64,000 nt of DNA from Eledone cirrhosa (GCA_964016885.1 OZ024742.1:255502001-255566000); one strand, 5' to 3'; positions 5,130 through 58,725 are shown, counted from the stretch's first letter. Notes: generated by a model not told the origin, from the letters alone. Numbers and translations are program-made.

Positions 5130-5620
5130 TAACCAGTTGGAAAGGTATAACACACCATTGCTCATAAAACATGTTGCAAATCATTTTTTCTTCCAAATCT
5201 AAAAATATTTCCCGAATGGCCATAAATCCCTCTAACTGCTTAACAAAAACCTCTTAAATATAAACTATAGCTGCATGCAAAACATTTTCCATCCATCAAG
5301 AGCAGCATTGCCAAAATATTGCAACCAAATCTCAAGTGAAGTGAACTAGCATGCAGTTGTTGAAACATAGAACTTTTCCATCTGGTGGGCAAATGTTTAG
5401 AGAAAAGCTATGTATACCTGAAGTATAACATTCCCTTAGGGCACATCAATAAATTACACAGAGCTTACATAGCAGGTTTTCAAGAGTTGTCTATAGCAGC
5501 ACAACTCGTTTCCTCGTCGCTATCTGAAGAACACTGCAACACACCATTTTAAAGCATATTGGAAATAGAAAGTTAAAGAACAAACTACCAAGTCTCCTCC
5601 TGCACAATGTGAGTTAATCC
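5130..5620 (+). mobile_element. Decayed Naiad-type PLE fragment (thumb, linker, GIY-YIG)
   Basis: Remnant peptides YNTP, FPNGHK, NKN..INYSCMQNI, CSC*..GKCLEKSYVY, collinear with the 30479 ORF. Confidence 0.6.
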
Positions 5621-7809: not shown

Positions 7810-8026
7810 CGTCCTGTACCACATAAAACTACTTTAACAAGACATTCTTTAAAAGTACAAAAGAATAAACAAAAACAAAACAAAAAAGATTGCATGGCAT
7901 TAATAGACTATTTGATATAATATTAGAAATGTTCACAACGATCTGTTCACTTGTGAAGATAATTTAAACATTTGAATTAAAAAAAACTTCCTTTTTAGAT
8001 ATTTTGTAATAAAACACTACAGAATG
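7810..8026. mobile_element. Short MITE-like element with ~9-bp TIRs in a TTAA-like site; same family as 20692-21203
   Basis: TTAA|CGTCCTGTA...TACAGAATG|TTAT; both ends are homologous to 20692-21203. Confidence 0.5.
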
Positions 8027-8878: not shown

Positions 8879-8992
8879 TATTGGTAAATGGAAAAGAAAA
8901 TGGTGACAAATTTTTCACTGTGAACAATTTGTCAGCATTTTCTTTTCCACTTAGCAATATATCATAACTTGTGTGTTACACCTCTATTCTTT

Positions 8993-8998
<6 letters not shown>
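8879..8998. mobile_element. Mini fold-back PLE end (~40-bp arms plus tail), same family as 10657-11783
   Basis: TTGGTAAATGGAAAAGAAAATG..CAAATT inverted to AATTTGTCAGCATTTTCTTTTCCACTTAGCAA; tail is the reverse complement of 10657-10690; (TA)n flanks. Confidence 0.7.
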
Positions 8999-9024
<26 letters not shown>

Positions 9025-9029
<5 letters not shown>

Positions 9030-10638
9030 AAAGTTTGTCCTTCATCAGTGATCTTCCAACTATCATAGGCATTTCATCGCTTTAAAGACCATATACCTCC
9101 GGTTGGTGCGAGCAACGGCTAAAAAAAGTCGTTGGGACACGTAAATAAAGGGGACGCGAGGGTAAACAAACAAAATGGTGAGGCAACAGAAAGTGAGGAA
9201 GAAGGAGACAAGTCCCAGATTTCTATGAATTTAAGTTCGGTGAAATCGTGAACGAGAGAATAAAGACCATCAAACCTGGTTGAAATGTGAGCAAGGAAGG
9301 AATTTCGCACAGGTCTAACGGGAGGAAGAAGGGGTCTGGTCTGCGAATTCGGTAAACATAAGTTCTGTGAAATCGTAGACGAGAGAGAAAAAAATTCCGA
9401 CCAGCTGGGCAGAGAATGTGAGAGAAACGAGTTACTCACAGGTCAAACGGGAAGAAAGAGGAGGAGGAGGAGAGGTAGTGACAGAGAATGAGTGAGTGAA
9501 GGGTGAGGTGAGTAAGAGGCTAACAGAGAGAGAGAGACTGCTAGAAAGGGTAAAGATACATAGAGCGAAAAAGACGGTGTAGCAGCAGAGGAAAAAATAT
9601 GTGTAAATATGATCTCTCGTCTACGATTTCACAGAACTTATGTTTACCGAATTCGCAGACCAGACCCCTTCTTCCTCCCGTTAGATCTGTGCGAAATTCC
9701 TTCCTTGCTCACATTTCAACCAGGTTTGATGGTCTTTATTCTCTCGTTCAAGATTTCACCGAACTTAAATTCATAGAAATCTGGGACTTGTCTCCTTCTT
9801 CCTCACTTTCTGTTGCCTCACCATTTTGTTTGTTTACCCTCGCGTCCCCTTTATTTACGTGTCCCAACGACTTTTTTAGCCGTTGCTCGCACCAACCGGA
9901 GGTATATGGTCTTTAAAGCGATGAAATGCCTATGATAGTTGGAAGATCACTGATGAAGGATAAACTTTTTTCATATGTAACCCATTTGCAACTCCGCAGC
10001 GCCCTTATTATCATATTTACACATATTTTTTCCTCTGCTGCTACACCGTCTTTTTCGTTCTATGTATCTTTACCCTTTCTAGCAGTCTCTCTCTCTGTTA
10101 GCCTCTTCCTCACCTCACCCTTCACTCACTCATTCTCTGTCACTACCTCTCCTCCTCCTCCTCTTTCTTCCCGTTTGACCTGTGAGTAACTCTTTTCTCT
10201 CACATTCTCGGCCAAGCTGGTCGGAATTTTTTTTCTCTCTCATCTACGATTTCACAGAACTTATGTTTACCGAATTCGCAGACCAGACCCCTTCTTCCTC
10301 CCGTTAGACCTGTGCGAAATTCCTTCCTTGCTCACATTTCAACCAGGTTTGATGGTCTTTATTCTCTCGTTCACGATTTCACCGAACTTAAATTCATAGA
10401 AATCTGGGACTTGTCTCCTTCTTCCTCACTTTCTGTTGCCTCACCATTTTGTTTGTTTACCCTCGCGTCCCCTTTATTTACGTGTCCCAACGACTTTTTT
10501 TAGCCGTTGCTCGCACCAACCGGAGGTATATGGTCTTTAAAGCGATGAAATGCCTATGATAGTTGGAAGATCACTGATGAAGGACAACCTTTTTTCATAT
10601 GTAACCCATTTGCAACTCCGCAGTGCCCTTATTATCAT
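9025..10638. mobile_element. Non-coding PLE/retrozyme-like element: 624-bp unit present as an inverted copy plus ~1.6 direct tandem copies
   Basis: 9025-9613 is the reverse complement of ~10011-10600; GTAACCCATTTGC recurs at 9977 and 10601 (period 624); (TA)n flanks. Confidence 0.75.
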
Positions 10639-10656
10639 ATATATATATATATATAT

Positions 10657-11779
10657 AGTTAAAAGAATAGAGGTGTAACACACTAGTTATTATATATTGG
10701 TAAACGGAATAGAAAATGCTGACAAATTGTTCACAGTTGAAAAATGGTTTAATTAGGAATAAAAGAGTATTAGTGATTGTATGGGTTAGTATTCAGTTGT
10801 GGTTTTAAGTTTTTAAGTTTTTACCGGTTGCGCATTTCTAAATGCTTTTCAAAAATAATTTTGAGATAGAGTGTCCGTGCTGTTTGCTCTGATCTGATTA
10901 GTTTTGGGAATTCTACCTGTTTTTATGTTAAAAAAATGGCTCCAGCGTTATTTTTGTGTTGCAAAAATGCTTGTGGTCAAAACAATTTTGATTGGTCGGT
11001 AGAGGTCATGTGAATGTAAAAAGTTGATTTTGCGCCAAGACTGTTTTTATGTTAAAATGTTAGAAAAGTGGCTCCAGCAAAAATTATGGTCAAAACAATT
11101 TTGATTGGTCGGTAGAGGTCATGTGGATAAAAAATGTGGATATATGCACATATATTTTTTTGTATTGCACCATAGAGCATGTGTGTTTACGTGTGTCATT
11201 GTGTTTATATGTGGGTAGAGATGTGTGCTGGTGTAGGTATGTATGTTGACGTGTGTATGTTGTGGGTTCGTCTTAGGGAGAAGTGTTTAGACGGGGTCCG
11301 TATTTGACTAAATACACACTCCCACACATACACACACAAAACCAATTTTTTATCCACATGACCTCTACCGACCAATCAAAATTGTTTTGACCATAATTTT
11401 TGCTGGAGCCACTTTTCTAACATTTTAACATAAAAACAGTCTTGGCGCAAAATCAACTTTTTACATTCACATGACCTCTACCGACCAATCAAAATTGTTT
11501 TGACCACAAGCATTTTTGCAACACAAAAATAACGCTGGAGCCATTTTTTTAACATAAAAACAGGTAGAATTCCCAAAACTAATCAGATCAGAGCAAACAG
11601 CACGGACACTCTATCTCAAAATTATTTTTGAAAAGCATTTAGAAATGCGCAACCGGTAAAAACTTAAAAACTTAAAACCACAACTGAATACTAACCCATA
11701 CAATCACTAATACTCTTTTATTCCTAATTAAACCATTTTTCAACTGTGAACAATTTGTCTGCATTTTCTATTCCGTTTA

Positions 11780-11783
<4 letters not shown>
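10657..11783. mobile_element. Fold-back non-coding element: ~440-bp inverted arms, ~200-bp spacer, tail on the left
   Basis: ~10695-11135 inverted at ~11345-11783; ~118-bp internal duplication in each arm; (TA)n flanks. Confidence 0.8.
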
Positions 11784-11863
<80 letters not shown>

Positions 11864-26732: not shown

Positions 26733-26917
26733 ATATATATATAATTGAATATACAAGGGAGATGAACACTAATATAAACATACATGTGTTCGAATCGTAA
26801 GGACCAAGTTTGCTAGGGTGAAAAAATACTAACTACAGCAATATGGTTTGCCAGACTTAATTTAAAGTACTAAATTAAGAAAAATAATAACAAACCTATA
26901 TTGGGCAACTGCCTGAA

Positions 26918-27000
26918 AACACCTAGACAGTTATGGAAACTGTTTTGCAAAATCATATTAAGCGAAGTCATCACCATTTCTCTGCTCATCAGTAGGTGTT
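26918..27000 (-). ncRNA. Type I hammerhead ribozyme (8-bp stem I; GAAA mutated to AAAA)
   Basis: Reverse complement: AACACCTA-CTGATGA-GCAGAG..TTTTGC-AAAA-CAGTT.tccat.AACTG-TC-TAGGTGTT. Confidence 0.7.
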
Positions 27001-27009
27001 GAGAATTTA

Positions 27010-27082
27010 CTACTGATGAGCAGAGAAATGGTGATGACTTCGCTTAATATGATTTTGCGAAACAGTTTCCATAACTGTCTAG
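27010..27082 (+). ncRNA. Type I hammerhead ribozyme (intact core, stem I truncated to 3 bp)
   Basis: CTA-CTGATGA(27013)-GCAGAG..TTTTGC-GAAA(27059)-CAGTT/AACTG stem III-GTC(27077-79)-TAG. Confidence 0.8.
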
Positions 27083-27332
27083 GTGTTTTCAGGCAGTTGC
27101 CAAATATAGGTTTGTTATTATTTTTCTTAATTTACTACTTTAAATTAAGTCTGGCAAACCGTATTGCTGTAGTTAGTATTTTTTCACCCTAGCAAACTTG
27201 GTCATTACAATTCGGACACATGTATGTTTATATTAGTATTCATCTCCTTTGTATATTCAATTATATTACACGGCTATTTAATTGTAAGAGACAACTTTGA
27301 GTTTCTAACACAGAATATATATATATATATAT

Positions 27333-27816: not shown

Positions 27817-27874
<58 letters not shown>

Positions 27875-27898
27875 CTACAGGATTAGTCTATATAAACT

Positions 27899-27973
<75 letters not shown>

Positions 27974-28096
27974 GGAGGTGAGTTTTATTGTAGTACAATA
28001 AAGCAATGCAGATATCGGATAAGAAGCACTCTACAGTTTGTGGGACTGGAGTATGCATAATATAAGATCAAAAGATGGTTAAAGGAGTTCAATATA

Positions 28097-28163
28097 TTTT
28101 ATTATGCGCATTTCAAAAACAAACATCATCAAACAATAATATTTGTGTTTTCATCAGATAAAA
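28097..28163 (-). ncRNA. Minimal type I hammerhead ribozyme (mirror copy)
   Basis: Reverse complement of 33135-33201. Confidence 0.85.
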
Positions 28164-29388
28164 CAGGAGAACATGATATGAAGGCTAAAAAAACACTTGT
28201 TGATAGTGCAGTTTTAAATCAACATATGAAAAGTGGTTTTAGATTGATGTGTGATATTGGGAAAAATATTTTATTTAGAGAGGGGGGGAGAGAAAAGGAT
28301 GAAAAGGGAAGGAGATGAGAGGGAGAGATGGGTGATAGAGAGAAAGAGATAGTTTTTATAACAGAGAGGAGATATATTTTATATAGAGGGGTTGAAAACC
28401 GTTGGAAGATACTGTATAAATTAAAAATTTTGAAAATTAACGAAGGGAGGATATGTGCGAGGAAAAAATATATTATATTTAGGGAGGGGTGGGGGTGGAA
28501 AGGATGAAAAAAAGGGAGGAGATGAGAGTGAAGGTGGAAAGGGAGAGATGGGTGATAGAGAGAAAGAGATAGTTTTTATAACTGAGAAAAAGATATAATG
28601 TTTTAATATAGAGAGGTTGGGAACCGTTGGAAGATAATGTATAAATTAAAGGAATTTGAAAATTAACGAAGGGAAATTATGTATGGAGATAGAGAGAAAA
28701 AAATAACGAAGGGAGATTATGTATGGAGATAGAGAGAAAAAAATAATAATTGTGGGTGAATATTCAAAAGGAGAAATGTAGGAATCTTAAAATTAGCAAA
28801 GAGAAAAAGTTTATGTATAGGATTTGAGAAAAATTTATATTGAATTCATATGTATTAATAATGAGTTCGTTGATGGGGAGAAAAAAATAATAATAATAAA
28901 TTAAGGATGAAATTGAGATTAAAAAGATTTATGATAGAGAGAAAAAATAATAATGATTGCGGATGAATACTCAAAATGTCAAAAACAAATGTTATTGTTT
29001 TACGAAGAGATATAATGAGGGTGATGAGTAAACGGGTATTATAGAGTGTATAATGCCCTTTAAAGTAAGGTAGATGGGTATATTTTAAAGAATATATGAG
29101 TATATATTAAAAAAAATATATATAATAATAAATTAAGGATGAAATTGAGATTAAAAAGATTTATGATAGAGGGAAAAAAAAAAAAAAAATAATAATGATT
29201 GCGGATGAATATTCAAAATGTCAAAAACAAATGTTATTGTTTTACGAGAAGATAGGATGAGGTAAATGAATAAACGAGTACTATAGAGTGTATAATGCCC
29301 TTTAAAGTAAGGTAGATGGGTATATTTTAAAGAGGTGTATGTATATGTGCCTTTGAGAAAAGATTCTAAATTGATAAAGAATTGAATA

Positions 29389-30528
29389 TTAACTGTATAC
29401 TTTGTGAAAAGTTCTATGGAATTTATGAAGGCAGATGGAAAACAAATCCGAGCGTCTATTTATTATGGATTCTAGGTTAGAGATAATGGTAAATTTTTCA
29501 TTTAGGCAGAGATTACAGATTTTAGATAGAGAACTGTTCAAGTACGAGGATGCAGAAGAAATCTTTTTCCAAAAGATGTTATATTTAATGTTTTTGTCTT
29601 TTAAGGACCATATGAGTTCTGAGAGAGCAGTGTTAGTTCTTTTAAGTTTGTATTTGAAAGATGAATGATGATTATAGAGACGAGCTTTAAAAGAGGTGGA
29701 AGTGGAGCCAAAATAGGTGAAGGAGTTGGTGCTAGTTATAATTTTACATTCATAAATTAAGTTTTTATCGAGGCAATGGTTGTTGAGAGGACATTTATTT
29801 TTAATGCGGCAGTTGCAATTAGAGAGATTATTAATGAGTGATCTAGTGTTATCTATAGAAGGAATTGGATTGGAGAAGTTGTTTGCGATAGGAATAATAG
29901 GAATAATAGTTTCTTGATTTAGAGTTGGATTATGAACATTTAGCGAAGTTGTGTTTGACGTTGCATTTGGGTTTACAGAAGTTAGCCTAGGGTTTACAAT
30001 GACGTCAGGAGTACTATTATTGTTATTATGAGATTCAATATTGGAAGGAAGAGATTTAGTATTTAATATTTTGTTGTTGTGTTTAGAAATGATGTTGGAA
30101 ATATTGGAGGATGTAGAATACGAAAATTTAATGGTGTGTTTGTTAAATATTTTACTATAGATATGTGAGGGAGGGAAGCATTTATTTAAGGCACTAAAAA
30201 ATAATTTAGGAATATTGTTATTAATAGAGATGGAGAAAGGAGCATTATACCAGATTATGTTTTTGTATCTAGGTCTTTTATTAAAATTATTGGAATGGTT
30301 ATGATTAAATATTCTACTGTAAGTTTTCCTAGAATTTGTTTCTTTATTATATTTGATTTTATCTGGATAGCCAGCTTTAGAAAGTGCGTTATTCATCCTC
30401 ACCGCACGTAAAACCATCCTAGAGTTCAACAACGAATATTGGACCAGAGCCGATACCTCTAACAACTTCGACATCACAATGGGAGCATCCGATTCATCCC
30501 AATTGACTGATTTAATTGGTATCTTCAT
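29389..30528 (-). CDS. Inverted-arm ORF: RT thumb, linker and GIY-YIG endonuclease fused to antisense spacer sequence
   Basis: Identical to the + ORF from NNALSKAGY onward; the junction creates an in-frame ATG at 30396-30394. Confidence 0.7.
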   Translation of the reverse strand: MKIPIKSVNWDESDAPIVMSKLLEVSALVQYSLLNSRMVLRAVRMNNALSKAGYPDKIKYNKETNSRKTYSRIFNHNHSNNFNKRPRYKNIIWYNAPFSISINNNIPKLFFSALNKCFPPSHIYSKIFNKHTIKFSYSTSSNISNIISKHNNKILNTKSLPSNIESHNNNNSTPDVIVNPRLTSVNPNATSNTTSLNVHNPTLNQETIIPIIPIANNFSNPIPSIDNTRSLINNLSNCNCRIKNKCPLNNHCLDKNLIYECKIITSTNSFTYFGSTSTSFKARLYNHHSSFKYKLKRTNTALSELIWSLKDKNIKYNIFWKKISSASSYLNSSLSKICNLCLNEKFTIISNLESIINRRSDLFSICLHKFHRTFHKVYS

Positions 30529-31909
30529 TTTGAACTCTTTGAGTCGGAAAATTCCTCAACTTCGCGGTGGAATTTATCGTGACGATGGACTCTTTACTAT
30601 CCTAAATTGCAATATAGTTAAACTTAATATTATTAAGAACAATATACGTAATCTCTTTAACCAACATAACCTAAAAATTGAATTTGATAATAGTACCAAA
30701 CTAGCTAATTTCTTGGATGTATCTCTTAATCTTGACACTGGCCTATATTACCCTTACCATAAAAACAATGAGAATCTTAATTATGTTAACTTTAAATCTA
30801 ACCATCCTACCAATATCAAGAATGCTATAGTTAATAATATTGGAAATAGAATATCTAACATATCTTCTAATAAAAACATCTTTGATGCTAACGCCAATTA
30901 CTATAATAACGCACTTTCTAAAGCTGGCTATCCAGATAAAATCAAATATAATAAAGAAACAAATTCTAGGAAAACTTACAGTAGAATATTTAATCATAAC
31001 CATTCCAATAATTTTAATAAAAGACCTAGATACAAAAACATAATCTGGTATAATGCTCCTTTCTCCATCTCTATTAATAACAATATTCCTAAATTATTTT
31101 TTAGTGCCTTAAATAAATGCTTCCCTCCCTCACATATCTATAGTAAAATATTTAACAAACACACCATTAAATTTTCGTATTCTACATCCTCCAATATTTC
31201 CAACATCATTTCTAAACACAACAACAAAATATTAAATACTAAATCTCTTCCTTCCAATATTGAATCTCATAATAACAATAATAGTACTCCTGACGTCATT
31301 GTAAACCCTAGGCTAACTTCTGTAAACCCAAATGCAACGTCAAACACAACTTCGCTAAATGTTCATAATCCAACTCTAAATCAAGAAACTATTATTCCTA
31401 TTATTCCTATCGCAAACAACTTCTCCAATCCAATTCCTTCTATAGATAACACTAGATCACTCATTAATAATCTCTCTAATTGCAACTGCCGCATTAAAAA
31501 TAAATGTCCTCTCAACAACCATTGCCTCGATAAAAACTTAATTTATGAATGTAAAATTATAACTAGCACCAACTCCTTCACCTATTTTGGCTCCACTTCC
31601 ACCTCTTTTAAAGCTCGTCTCTATAATCATCATTCATCTTTCAAATACAAACTTAAAAGAACTAACACTGCTCTCTCAGAACTCATATGGTCCTTAAAAG
31701 ACAAAAACATTAAATATAACATCTTTTGGAAAAAGATTTCTTCTGCATCCTCGTACTTGAACAGTTCTCTATCTAAAATCTGTAATCTCTGCCTAAATGA
31801 AAAATTTACCATTATCTCTAACCTAGAATCCATAATAAATAGACGCTCGGATTTGTTTTCCATCTGCCTTCATAAATTCCATAGAACTTTTCACAAAGTA
31901 TACAGTTAA
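30395..31909 (+). CDS. 5'-truncated PLE (Naiad) RT + GIY-YIG endonuclease
   Basis: Frame open from 30395 (ILTARKTILEFNNEYW); FDITMGASDS, GIYRDDG, NFLDV, SNHP, WYNAPFS, CNCRIKNKC (CxCx5C), LIY..YFG, FKARLYNH, CNLCLNEK, CLH. Confidence 0.92.
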   Translation: MLTARKTILEFNNEYWTRADTSNNFDITMGASDSSQLTDLIGIFILNSLSRKIPQLRGGIYRDDGLFTILNCNIVKLNIIKNNIRNLFNQHNLKIEFDNSTKLANFLDVSLNLDTGLYYPYHKNNENLNYVNFKSNHPTNIKNAIVNNIGNRISNISSNKNIFDANANYYNNALSKAGYPDKIKYNKETNSRKTYSRIFNHNHSNNFNKRPRYKNIIWYNAPFSISINNNIPKLFFSALNKCFPPSHIYSKIFNKHTIKFSYSTSSNISNIISKHNNKILNTKSLPSNIESHNNNNSTPDVIVNPRLTSVNPNATSNTTSLNVHNPTLNQETIIPIIPIANNFSNPIPSIDNTRSLINNLSNCNCRIKNKCPLNNHCLDKNLIYECKIITSTNSFTYFGSTSTSFKARLYNHHSSFKYKLKRTNTALSELIWSLKDKNIKYNIFWKKISSASSYLNSSLSKICNLCLNEKFTIISNLESIINRRSDLFSICLHKFHRTFHKVYS

Positions 31910-33134
31910 TATTCAATTCTTTATCAATTTAGAATCTTTTCTCAAAGGCACATATACATACACCTCTTTAAAATATACCCATCTACCTTACTTTAAAGGG
32001 CATTATACACTCTATAGTACTCGTTTATTCATTTACCTCATCCTATCTTCTCGTAAAACAATAACATTTGTTTTTGACATTTTGAATATTCATCCGCAAT
32101 CATTATTATTTTTTTTTTTTTTTTCCCTCTATCATAAATCTTTTTAATCTCAATTTCATCCTTAATTTATTATTATATATATTTTTTTTAATATATACTC
32201 ATATATTCTTTAAAATATACCCATCTACCTTACTTTAAAGGGCATTATACACTCTATAATACCCGTTTACTCATCACCCTCATTATATCTCTTCGTAAAA
32301 CAATAACATTTGTTTTTGACATTTTGAGTATTCATCCGCAATCATTATTATTTTTTCTCTCTATCATAAATCTTTTTAATCTCAATTTCATCCTTAATTT
32401 ATTATTATTATTTTTTTCTCCCCATCAACGAACTCATTATTAATACATATGAATTCAATATAAATTTTTCTCAAATCCTATACATAAACTTTTTCTCTTT
32501 GCTAATTTTAAGATTCCTACATTTCTCCTTTTGAATATTCACCCACAATTATTATTTTTTTCTCTCTATCTCCATACATAATCTCCCTTCGTTATTTTTT
32601 TCTCTCTATCTCCATACATAATTTCCCTTCGTTAATTTTCAAATTCCTTTAATTTATACATTATCTTCCAACGGTTCCCAACCTCTCTATATTAAAACAT
32701 TATATCTTTTTCTCAGTTATAAAAACTATCTCTTTCTCTCTATCACCCATCTCTCCCTTTCCACCTTCACTCTCATCTCCTCCCTTTTTTTCATCCTTTC
32801 CACCCCCACCCCTCCCTAAATATAATATATTTTTTCCTCGCACATATCCTCCCTTCGTTAATTTTCAAAATTTTTAATTTATACAGTATCTTCCAACGGT
32901 TTTCAACCCCTCTATATAAAATATATCTCCTCTCTGTTATAAAAACTATCTCTTTCTCTCTATCACCCATCTCTCCCTCTCATCTCCTTCCCTTTTCATC
33001 CTTTTCTCTCCCCCCCTCTCTAAATAAAATATTTTTCCCAATATCACACATCAATCTAAAACCACTTTTCATATGTTGATTTAAAACTGCACTATCAACA
33101 AGTGTTTTTTTAGCCTTCATATCATGTTCTCCTG

Positions 33135-33201
33135 TTTTATCTGATGAAAACACAAATATTATTGTTTGATGATGTTTGTTTTTGAAATGCGCATAATAAA
33201 A
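33135..33201 (+). ncRNA. Minimal type I hammerhead ribozyme with palindromic stem III, AUA cleavage site
   Basis: TTTTAT-CTGATGA(33141)-AAACACAAATAT..ATGTTTGTTTTT-GAAA(33184)-TGCGCA-TA-ATAAAA; 6-bp stem I. Confidence 0.85.
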
Positions 33202-33268
33202 TATATTGAACTCCTTTAACCATCTTTTGATCTTATATTATATATATATATATACATATATATATATT

Positions 33269-33361
<93 letters not shown>

Positions 33362-33363
<2 letters not shown>

Positions 33364-33800
33364 AGTTTATACAGACTAATTAATCCTGAAACATGCCATG
33401 TTGGTGTTGTTTCTGGTGGCAGGATAGAAATATTTCAGTGTTCTTCTGGAACAGCCGGAATAAAACTACTACAAAGTATGAACACACTAATGGATCAGCC
33501 GAAATATAACTACTACATATTATGAACAGGCTACTGGATCAGCTGAAATATAACTACTAGACTGTATGAACAGCGGTATATATATTCATGCAAAGGGAAA
33601 AGAGTTCCATATGTATAGAATAAGTGAATCTGTCGTTTCTTCCAAGAATCCTTTGAAGTAAAACCAACTTGATGATAAAGCTTATCGTAAATCCGATTAA
33701 CTGTAAACAACGCAATATTGATAATCTTTTTACCCTGGAGGAAAACAGTTCTTCTAAAGTTTTTGGAGGAAGTATAAAGAAAATATTACACATACATATA
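33362..33800 (-). mobile_element. Decayed PLE 3' end (GIY-YIG C-terminus) with three 44-bp repeats at ~33447-33578
   Basis: Remnant [17 protein letters not shown] resembles RE..WI..L.TL.P.G.N; the terminus recurs inverted at 27878-27900. Confidence 0.45.
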
Positions 33801-57044: not shown

Positions 57045-58725
57045 TCCACAAACACGAACACTAACACCAACATCACACCAACATCAACACCACCACCAAC
57101 ATAAACACCAACATCAACACCAACACCAACACCAACACCAACACCACCAACACCAACACCAACACAAAAACCAACACAAAAACCAACACAACACCAAAAC
57201 CAACACCAACACCAACACCACCATCAACACCAACACCAACACCAACAACAACATCAGCACCAACATCAACACCAACACCAACATCAACACCAACACCAAC
57301 ACCAACATCAACACCAACACCAACACCAACACCAACACCATCACCAACACCAACATCAACACCAACACCAACACCACTACCAACACCAACATCAACACCA
57401 ACATCAACACCAACACCAACACCAACATCATACCAACATCAACCCCAACACCAACACCAACACCACTACCAACATCAACACCAACACCAACACCAACACC
57501 AACACGAACACCACTACCAACATCAACACCAACACCAACACCAACACCAACATCATACCAACACCAACACCAACACCAACACCAACATCATACCAACACC
57601 AACACCAACACCAACACCAACACCACTACCAACATCAACACCAACACCAACACGAACACCACTACCAACATCAACACCAACACCAACACCAACACCACTA
57701 CCAACACCAACACCAATACCAACACCAACATCAACACCAATACCAACACCATCACCACCATCAACACCAACATCAACACCAACACCAACACCACCACCAA
57801 CATCAACACCAACACCAACACCACCACCAACATCAACACCAACATCAACACCAACACCAACACCAAACCAACACCAACATCAACACCAATACCAACACCA
57901 TCACCACGATCAACACCAACATCAACACCAACACCACCACCAACATCAACACCAACACCAACACCACCACCAACATCAACACCAATATCAACACCAACAC
58001 CAACACCAAACCAACACCAACATCAACACTAATACCAACACCATCACCACCATCAACACCAACATCAACACCAACACCAACACCACCACCAACACCACCA
58101 CCAACACCAACACCAACACCAACACCAACACCAACACCACTACCAAGACCAAGACCAACACCAACATCAACACCAACACCACTACCAACACCAACACCAA
58201 CACCAACTTCAACACCAACATCAACACCAACACCAACACCAACACCAACACCAACACCAACGCCAACACCACTACCAAGACCAAGACCAACACCAACACC
58301 AACACCAACACCACTACCACTACCAACACCAACACCAACATCAACACCAACACCAACATCAACACCAACACCAACACCAACATCAACACCAACACCAACA
58401 CCAACACCATCACCACCACCAACACCAACATCAACACCAACACCAACACCACTACCAACACCAACATCAACACCAACATCAACACCAACACCAACACCAC
58501 TACCAACATCAACACAACACCAACACCAACACCAACACCAACACCAACACCAACACCAACATCAACACCAACATCAACACCACCACCACCACCAACACCA
58601 ACACCAACACCATCACCAACACCACCACCAACATCAACATCAACAACAACACCACCACCACCACCAACACCAACACCAACACCACCACCACCACCACCAA
58701 CACCAACATCGACACCATAAACACC
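57045..58725. repeat. 1.7-kb (CACCAA)n hexamer satellite with CATCAA/CAC/CTA variants
   Basis: Direct reading. Confidence 0.95.

Follow-up and report, generated by a model that had tools for sequence, protein, structure and literature searches.

A young palindromic Penelope-like insertion in Eledone cirrhosa and its probable origin by paired priming at two fixed sites

How does a retrotransposon come to lie in a genome as two inverted copies of itself, with identical arms and a short tail on only one of them? The question is raised by a locus in a 64,000-nucleotide stretch of the Eledone cirrhosa genome (GCA_964016885.1 OZ024742.1:255502001-255566000; hereafter the window, with positions counted from its first nucleotide). 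A sequence-only reading had described it as a 5.3-kb Naiad palindrome with no indel between its arms, and alignment confirms the mirror symmetry: the arms at 28057-30393 and 30905-33241 match as reverse complements along all 2,337 bp, with 0 mismatches and 0 indels, and even a T/A homopolymer is 16 nt long in each. The 511-bp RT spacer and the one-sided 86-bp tail described earlier are likewise found, the spacer between the arms at 30394-30904 and the tail at 27971-28056 on the left arm alone; the element adjoins (TA)n at either end. The features of the locus are as follows.

27873-27900, minus strand: 28-bp island between two (TA)n arrays, an imperfect inverted copy of the right flank at 33362-33388 (1 mismatch, 4-nt deletion)
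27901-27970, no strand assigned: left (TA)n target array, 70 nt
27971-28056, minus strand: PLE tail from end A (u3805) to end B (u3893), 86 nt, or 88 nt with the AT that is common to the array
28057-30393, minus strand: left arm, an inverted 5'-truncated copy from u1477 to end A, then the tail
28096-28163, minus strand: type I hammerhead ribozyme motif of the left copy
28227, minus strand, and its mirror 33071, plus strand: putative transcription start u3635, outward-facing
29389-30393, minus strand: left ORF remnant, residues 476-809 (end of the thumb, asparagine-rich insert, GIY-YIG endonuclease)
30393-30394, no strand assigned: head-to-head junction with 1-nt microhomology, unique in the genome
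30394-30904, plus strand: spacer, holding the RT core in the right copy only, with YRDD at 30575-30586
30394-31909, plus strand: right ORF remnant, residues 306-809 of 809, without RWT, DKT and RT motif A
30905-33241, plus strand: right arm, with end A at its terminus and no tail
31253-31471, plus strand: asparagine-rich insert (aa 592-664), predicted to be disordered and gapped in most of 36 homologues
31481-31909, plus strand: CxCX5C linker and GIY-YIG-type endonuclease with CxxC..E and CxH, without CCHH
31910-33241, plus strand: 3' UTR or pseudo-LTR of 1.33 kb with internal 220-242-bp duplications
33135-33201, plus strand: type I hammerhead ribozyme motif of the right copy, with a predicted cut after 33195
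33242-33361, no strand assigned: right (TA)n target array, interrupted

The RT-GIY-YIG frames had been called uninterrupted, and both are indeed open from stop to stop (30371-31909 on the plus strand and 30555-29389 on the minus strand), but both copies are 5'-truncated. Specifically, the right copy begins in codon 305 of 809, past RT motif A, whereas the left copy begins at codon 476, so that the last part of the thumb and the endonuclease remain but the RT core does not. Neither copy has RT motif A; the insertion cannot encode a working RT and cannot move by itself. A 27-mer spanning the central junction is unique in the 3.0-Gb genome, and the motif of the 28-bp island occurs genome-wide only at 27873-27900 and 33362-33388.

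The label Naiad is not supported, because Naiad PLEs are described as carrying their GIY-YIG endonuclease at the N-terminus, with two Cys of the CCHH motif within its core, and as having DKA but lacking a canonical hammerhead (PMC8557442). None of these holds here: the endonuclease is C-terminal, no Cys pair lies between LIYECKI and TYFG and CCHH is thus absent, the motif reads SDKT rather than DKA, and a hammerhead motif is present. A Naiad identity was accordingly rejected, although the (TA)n target, inverted and tandem insertions, a one-sided tail and a comparable unit length are all shared with that group (PMC8557442). Judged by its motifs against the clade descriptions in the same paper, the element fits the Hydra clade of Penelope-like retrotransposons, for which a C-terminal GIY-YIG domain, CxCX5C, DKT, RWK, CxxC and CxH flanking E and N, a hammerhead, (TA)n insertion and the absence of CCHH are given (PMC8557442). 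These are found here, with RWT in the place of RWK. Full copies carry one ORF of 809 aa in which the RT core precedes the GIY-YIG domain, and the family has the (TA)n preference. The linker C668-x-C670-x5-C676, CNLCLNE and CLH follow patterns seen in 28, 36 and 36 of 36 homologues, respectively. SDKT corresponds to a DKT motif kept in 34/36, and at the aligned place of RWT 23/36 have RWK and 33/36 have RW-x.

The element also departs from that clade in several respects. Its unit of 3,893-3,896 nt (3.9 kb) exceeds a Hydra-clade length that is typical rather than strict ('generally <3 kb'; PMC8557442), the excess being a 1.3-kb 3' UTR and the asparagine-rich insert of ~73 aa. RWT replaces RWK, copies number in the thousands, and the tail measures 86-88 nt as against the 30-40 bp stated for PLEs (PMC8557442). 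Pfam returned no match for the window ORF or for the full 809-aa ORF, and one homologue (P0003) has a weak GIY-YIG match below the cut-off (E 0.012). The best matches to the predicted fold of the 809-aa ORF are telomerase RTs; 70 homologues, at 31-40% identity, are nearly all unnamed. By these comparisons the element is a new Hydra-clade member, unusually long and abundant, whose palindrome type is already known: Penelope-13_HM of the same clade likewise carries an inverted 5'-truncated copy (PMC8557442).

A ribozyme had been noticed near each outer end, and each arm does contain a candidate type I hammerhead, with cores CUGAUGA...GAAA-UGCGCA-UA at 33141-33195 (plus strand) and 28157-28103 (minus strand), in sense to each copy. 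An Rfam scan of the window at gathering thresholds gave no match. Across 45 distinct copies the core and three stems are kept, with 97% of cells paired vs 38-63% in slid controls, and covariation in the same copies is not above that of shuffles. Hammerhead cleavage was considered as the source of the main RNA 5' end and rejected, since no more than 1-3 of the sampled arms end near u3760. The loci L075, L085, L103, L110, L126 and L136 also contain a second, shorter repeat with a hammerhead whose stem II is different.

The family to which this insertion belongs is large. In the genome, end B (tail-to-TA) is matched exactly at 7,930 junctions and the tail-less end A at 5,585; a 30-mer of the endonuclease has 1,369 exact copies, and a young subfamily has 45 exact tandem junctions. 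A search for a full-length master copy, which the sequence-only reading had proposed, yielded intact 809-aa ORFs in full 3,893-3,896-nt units elsewhere in the genome. For a sample of insertions, exact A and B ends were listed in the first 45 Mb of contig C1, giving 78 stretches. Two outward ends are present in 57 of these: 52 are A/B, 3 are A/A and 2 are B/B. Among the others, 18 have no partner end within ~7.5 kb, 2 are interrupted by TA arrays within them, and 1 was unscored. The sampled insertions span 95-5,286 bp, and 2/57 exceed 4 kb. Thus, the palindromic shape seen in the window is the normal product of the family, and inverted insertions with a one-sided tail are known for PLEs in general (PMC8557442). 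The commonest product is a non-coding A/B palindrome of ~420 bp with both arms ending at u3634-3635 (for example L112 7170-7595 and L128 404-829), and this short-copy stop accounts for 795 exact junctions in the genome. In a sample biased to long copies, 5' truncations cluster near u590-660 (L033, L038, L048, L055, L059, L065), possibly at an RT pause site.

The pairing of ends departs strongly from chance. Independent end choice would make half of the two-ended loci A/B, as against the 52/57 observed (p 3e-11; first 45 Mb of contig C1). In a set of 31 long A/B loci, with coordinates entered by hand, arm A reaches farther 5' in 12, arm B in 16, and the two are within 50 nt of each other in 3. 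The tail can therefore be on either arm, the longer in 16 of 31 and the shorter in 12, which is not what a single fold-back predicts. A literature search, outside which lay most subscription papers and older Penelope reviews, returned no statement of one-A-one-B coupling or of shared arm haplotypes.

The two arms also share source variants. In 48 young insertions, family-polymorphic variants are present in both inverted arms in 71/71 cases, compared with 2,069/19,196 (11%) between insertions, and arms differ by 0.46/kb as against 3.03/kb between insertions; the pairs in both comparisons are not independent. Poly-T expansions occur at the identical site in both arms, often at unequal lengths, which fits what separate copying would give. 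Substitutions private to one of these 48 insertions are one-sided in 32 cases and shared in 24 in inverted pairs, whereas an earlier 18-locus set gave 21 shared and 8 one-sided, an excess that shrank with more loci; tandem units of one insertion have 38 shared and 31 one-sided. We read the one-sided private substitutions as RT errors plus later mutation. Of 30 arm junctions tried, 25 were resolved, most with 1-6 nt of microhomology or a short insert.

Some arms appear to preserve the start of the RNA itself. An extra non-templated G precedes 15/34 arms that stop at u3634-3635, and a non-templated G in this position is a signature of cap copying. We infer a capped RNA start at u3635, with outward-facing promoters. 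Long copies in the sampled tandem loci show no pile-up at this putative start. Two further loci, L157 4002-5360 (C13 ~36.27 Mb) and L149 4159-4984 (C2 ~216.01 Mb), are A/B palindromes built of mini-units of 185 nt and 204 nt, respectively. Each repeats a locus-private mini-unit junction in both arms, with a period found in no other tandem-junction locus of the young subfamily, and their appearance suggests rolling-circle copying of small circular RNAs.

A biochemical precedent exists in a Poseidon PLE, which in vitro cuts and extends both strands, uses two internal starts that bound the tail, and is predicted to act as a dimer (PMC11167929). Priming of both ends on one RNA, separate copying and the joining of cDNA ends, as we infer here, would extend that result. 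On balance, we regard it as reasonably probable that the window holds a young, doubly 5'-truncated Hydra-clade PLE insertion into (TA)n, in which both target ends were primed on one RNA at sites 88 nt apart. The GIY-YIG endonuclease would cut both (TA)n strands; one 3' end would prime at site A (u3805) and the other at site B (u3893), and the tail would be on one arm only because the ends prime at A and B, respectively. Two reverse transcriptases would then move along the same RNA in the direction of its 5' end; one would displace the cDNA of the other, and each would stop independently. Stops at u965 and u1477 in this case would give the 511-bp spacer. Finally, the cDNA 3' ends would join head-to-head by microhomology, and each would be filled in on the other.

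Several observations sit poorly with priming on one RNA. The A/B rule needs coupled starts, while the available text on Poseidon reports no start-site difference between strands (PMC11167929). The 5/57 A/A or B/B loci and the 18/78 stretches lacking a nearby partner end count against it, as does the preponderance of one-sided over shared private substitutions, and it leaves the 28-bp inverted flank island unexplained. Moreover, source variants common to both arms would be seen whether the template was one RNA molecule or two RNAs of one source locus. An alternative in which the same element and A/B priming are retained, but the cDNAs come from two such RNAs held by an asymmetric dimer, explains the 71/71 shared variants and the unequal poly-T lengths and suits most of the data just as well, and with only 45 exact tandem junctions in the young subfamily, few sources may be active per cell. 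Nevertheless, many source haplotypes exist and yet no arm pair is discordant, and the mini-unit junctions in both arms of L149 and L157, with their private periods, point to a one-off shared template; we think this alternative unlikely. A single template, probably circular, is favored by the same mini-units.

We give slightly less credence to fold-back or self-priming, in which one cDNA, or an antisense template (PMC3846280), serves as its own template and one end is shortened or lengthened afterwards. Inverted flank copies do accompany 3/5 of the same-ended sampled loci (L116, L132, L135) and L147, a short island that repeats the opposite flank in inverted form lies between two (TA)n arrays in the window and in L090 (left flank), and a palindromic junction is common in the family. 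However, two cDNAs ending in ATAT would form the same common junction, the junction in the window is not palindromic, and under fold-back the ends should be equal or the tail should always be found on the longer arm, whereas the tail in the window is on the shorter arm, as in 12/31 long loci. Inverted flank copies are found at 4/61 insertion sites vs 15-16/504 background TA arrays at scores of 28-32, and a hand-curated count (5/62 vs 10/504, p 0.017) is only suggestive. Same-ended loci whose flanks are duplicated, which are rare, do fit fold-back, as the 28-bp island in the window may. We consider it very improbable, by contrast, that the locus is an artefact of assembly or of a fold-back read, a possibility the sequence-only reading had raised while noting that the asymmetric tail fits PLE biology. 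The one-sided tail is indeed a PLE hallmark. Ends and flanks would be duplicated in symmetry if this were a fold-back read, whereas here the ends are B and A and the flanks are unlike beyond 28 bp, and the same anatomy is found in 52/57 sampled loci, most with diverged arms. In favor of an artefact are the full identity of the arms and four other runs covering 30000-30900, in which no record among the matches listed crosses the 30393/30394 junction and only normal continuation of the element is seen. Those runs are probably from other individuals or species because they carry other alleles of the family. Run X2 has the right flank in one contig (1 difference in 439, depth 3.9) and contigs with other letters at 30032, 30088 and 30696, hinting that the insertion is absent from it, at a low depth and with contigs that drop rare variants.

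Arm identity might instead reflect gene conversion in an older palindrome, and some loci with several private substitutions do have them in both arms. Against this, the window is without private substitutions and agrees with the most frequent young haplotype, and older palindromes have arms that are 83-99% identical, with 4/40 free of mismatches; of all the readings, this is the one we find least credible. The earlier proposal of a recent insertion from an active family agrees with the intact ORFs and the one-sided tail, and with the best 18 of 40 scored genome matches, which are 100% identical over 1,516 bp. The identity of the arms, although real, is not special. Among 16 scored young arm pairs there are 8 substitutions in 30.9 kb (~0.26 substitutions/kb), and zero differences in 2.3 kb are therefore expected about half the time. 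Nor is the instability suggested earlier evident in the genome: given the 83-99% identity of older arms, each arm ages on its own, and older palindromes of several kb survive with 92-99% identity between their arms.

Paired priming may have a wider reach. We advance only tentatively the idea that PLEs insert by dimer paired priming at A and B on one RNA that is often circular and is sometimes copied for more than one round. Priming of this kind on circular RNA would yield the one-sided tail, palindromes, pseudo-LTRs, multi-unit tandems and retrozyme-like mini-arrays from one process. In its favor are the private junctions found in both arms of L149 and L157, the private substitutions that tandem units of an insertion have in common (38 shared, 31 one-sided), and the lack of a pile-up of long copies at u3635 in the sampled tandem loci. 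Multi-unit read-through transcripts or DNA-level duplication remain as alternatives to the circular-RNA reading.

The surroundings of the insertion contain no host coding exon among the 97 of 122 candidate window ORFs that were scanned, which gave only an RT at 1-2916 and an HTH match. The RT belongs to an open 972-aa LINE ORF2-like frame (endonuclease, RVT_1, zf-RVT) that is cut by the window start. Elsewhere in the window are a hairpin with 257-bp arms at 96% (26739-27266), a complex nested inverted set (8910-11844), and a 1.7-kb low-complexity tandem array with long open frames (57047-58725). Because the putative starts at 33071 (plus strand) and 28227 (minus strand) face outward, the element would not transcribe its own hairpin, and dsRNA, as a putative source of siRNA or target of editing, would need read-through from the host.

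As one of many such insertions, the locus is ordinary alone, and it is the statistics of the family that carry interest. The origin of tandem and inverted PLE structures has been called unresolved (PMC8557442). Because this family is young, has thousands of insertions in the assembly, uses two fixed priming sites, and offers both intact ORFs and variants specific to a source, the question becomes countable genome-wide and testable in vitro. The family also leaves near-perfect inverted repeats throughout a 3-Gb animal genome; hundreds of them are likely to be multi-kb, judging from the 2/57 sampled insertions longer than 4 kb, and the repeats could give rise to dsRNA where transcription of host genes runs through them. 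Some insertions lie at the center of inverted duplications of host DNA. In the same-ended loci L135 with L165/L166 (C1 ~35.31-35.32 Mb), L116, L132 and L147, host flanks are inverted-duplicated, over ~4 kb at 99.3% in L165/L166.

Among known systems, Poseidon PAc of Anolis resembles this element in having two reverse-transcription starts that bound the tail, an AT-rich target and a hammerhead, but it belongs to another clade and is reported with no strand difference in start site, in passages that touch neither on one-A-one-B coupling nor on the joining of inverted arms (PMC11167929). The Penelope elements of Adineta vaga likewise show head-to-head inverted pLTRs with a tail on one, and Pen2a carries an asparagine-rich insert between the RT and the endonuclease; unlike the family described here, they have a low copy number, and their structures are ascribed to self-priming on an antisense template (PMC3846280). 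Finally, the mini-units of L149 and L157 recall non-LTR retrozymes, short tandem units derived from PLE pLTRs and thought to be copied from circular RNA (PMC7761336; bioRxiv 10.64898/2026.07.22.740005), although the mini-units are without a hammerhead core and lie inside A/B palindromes.
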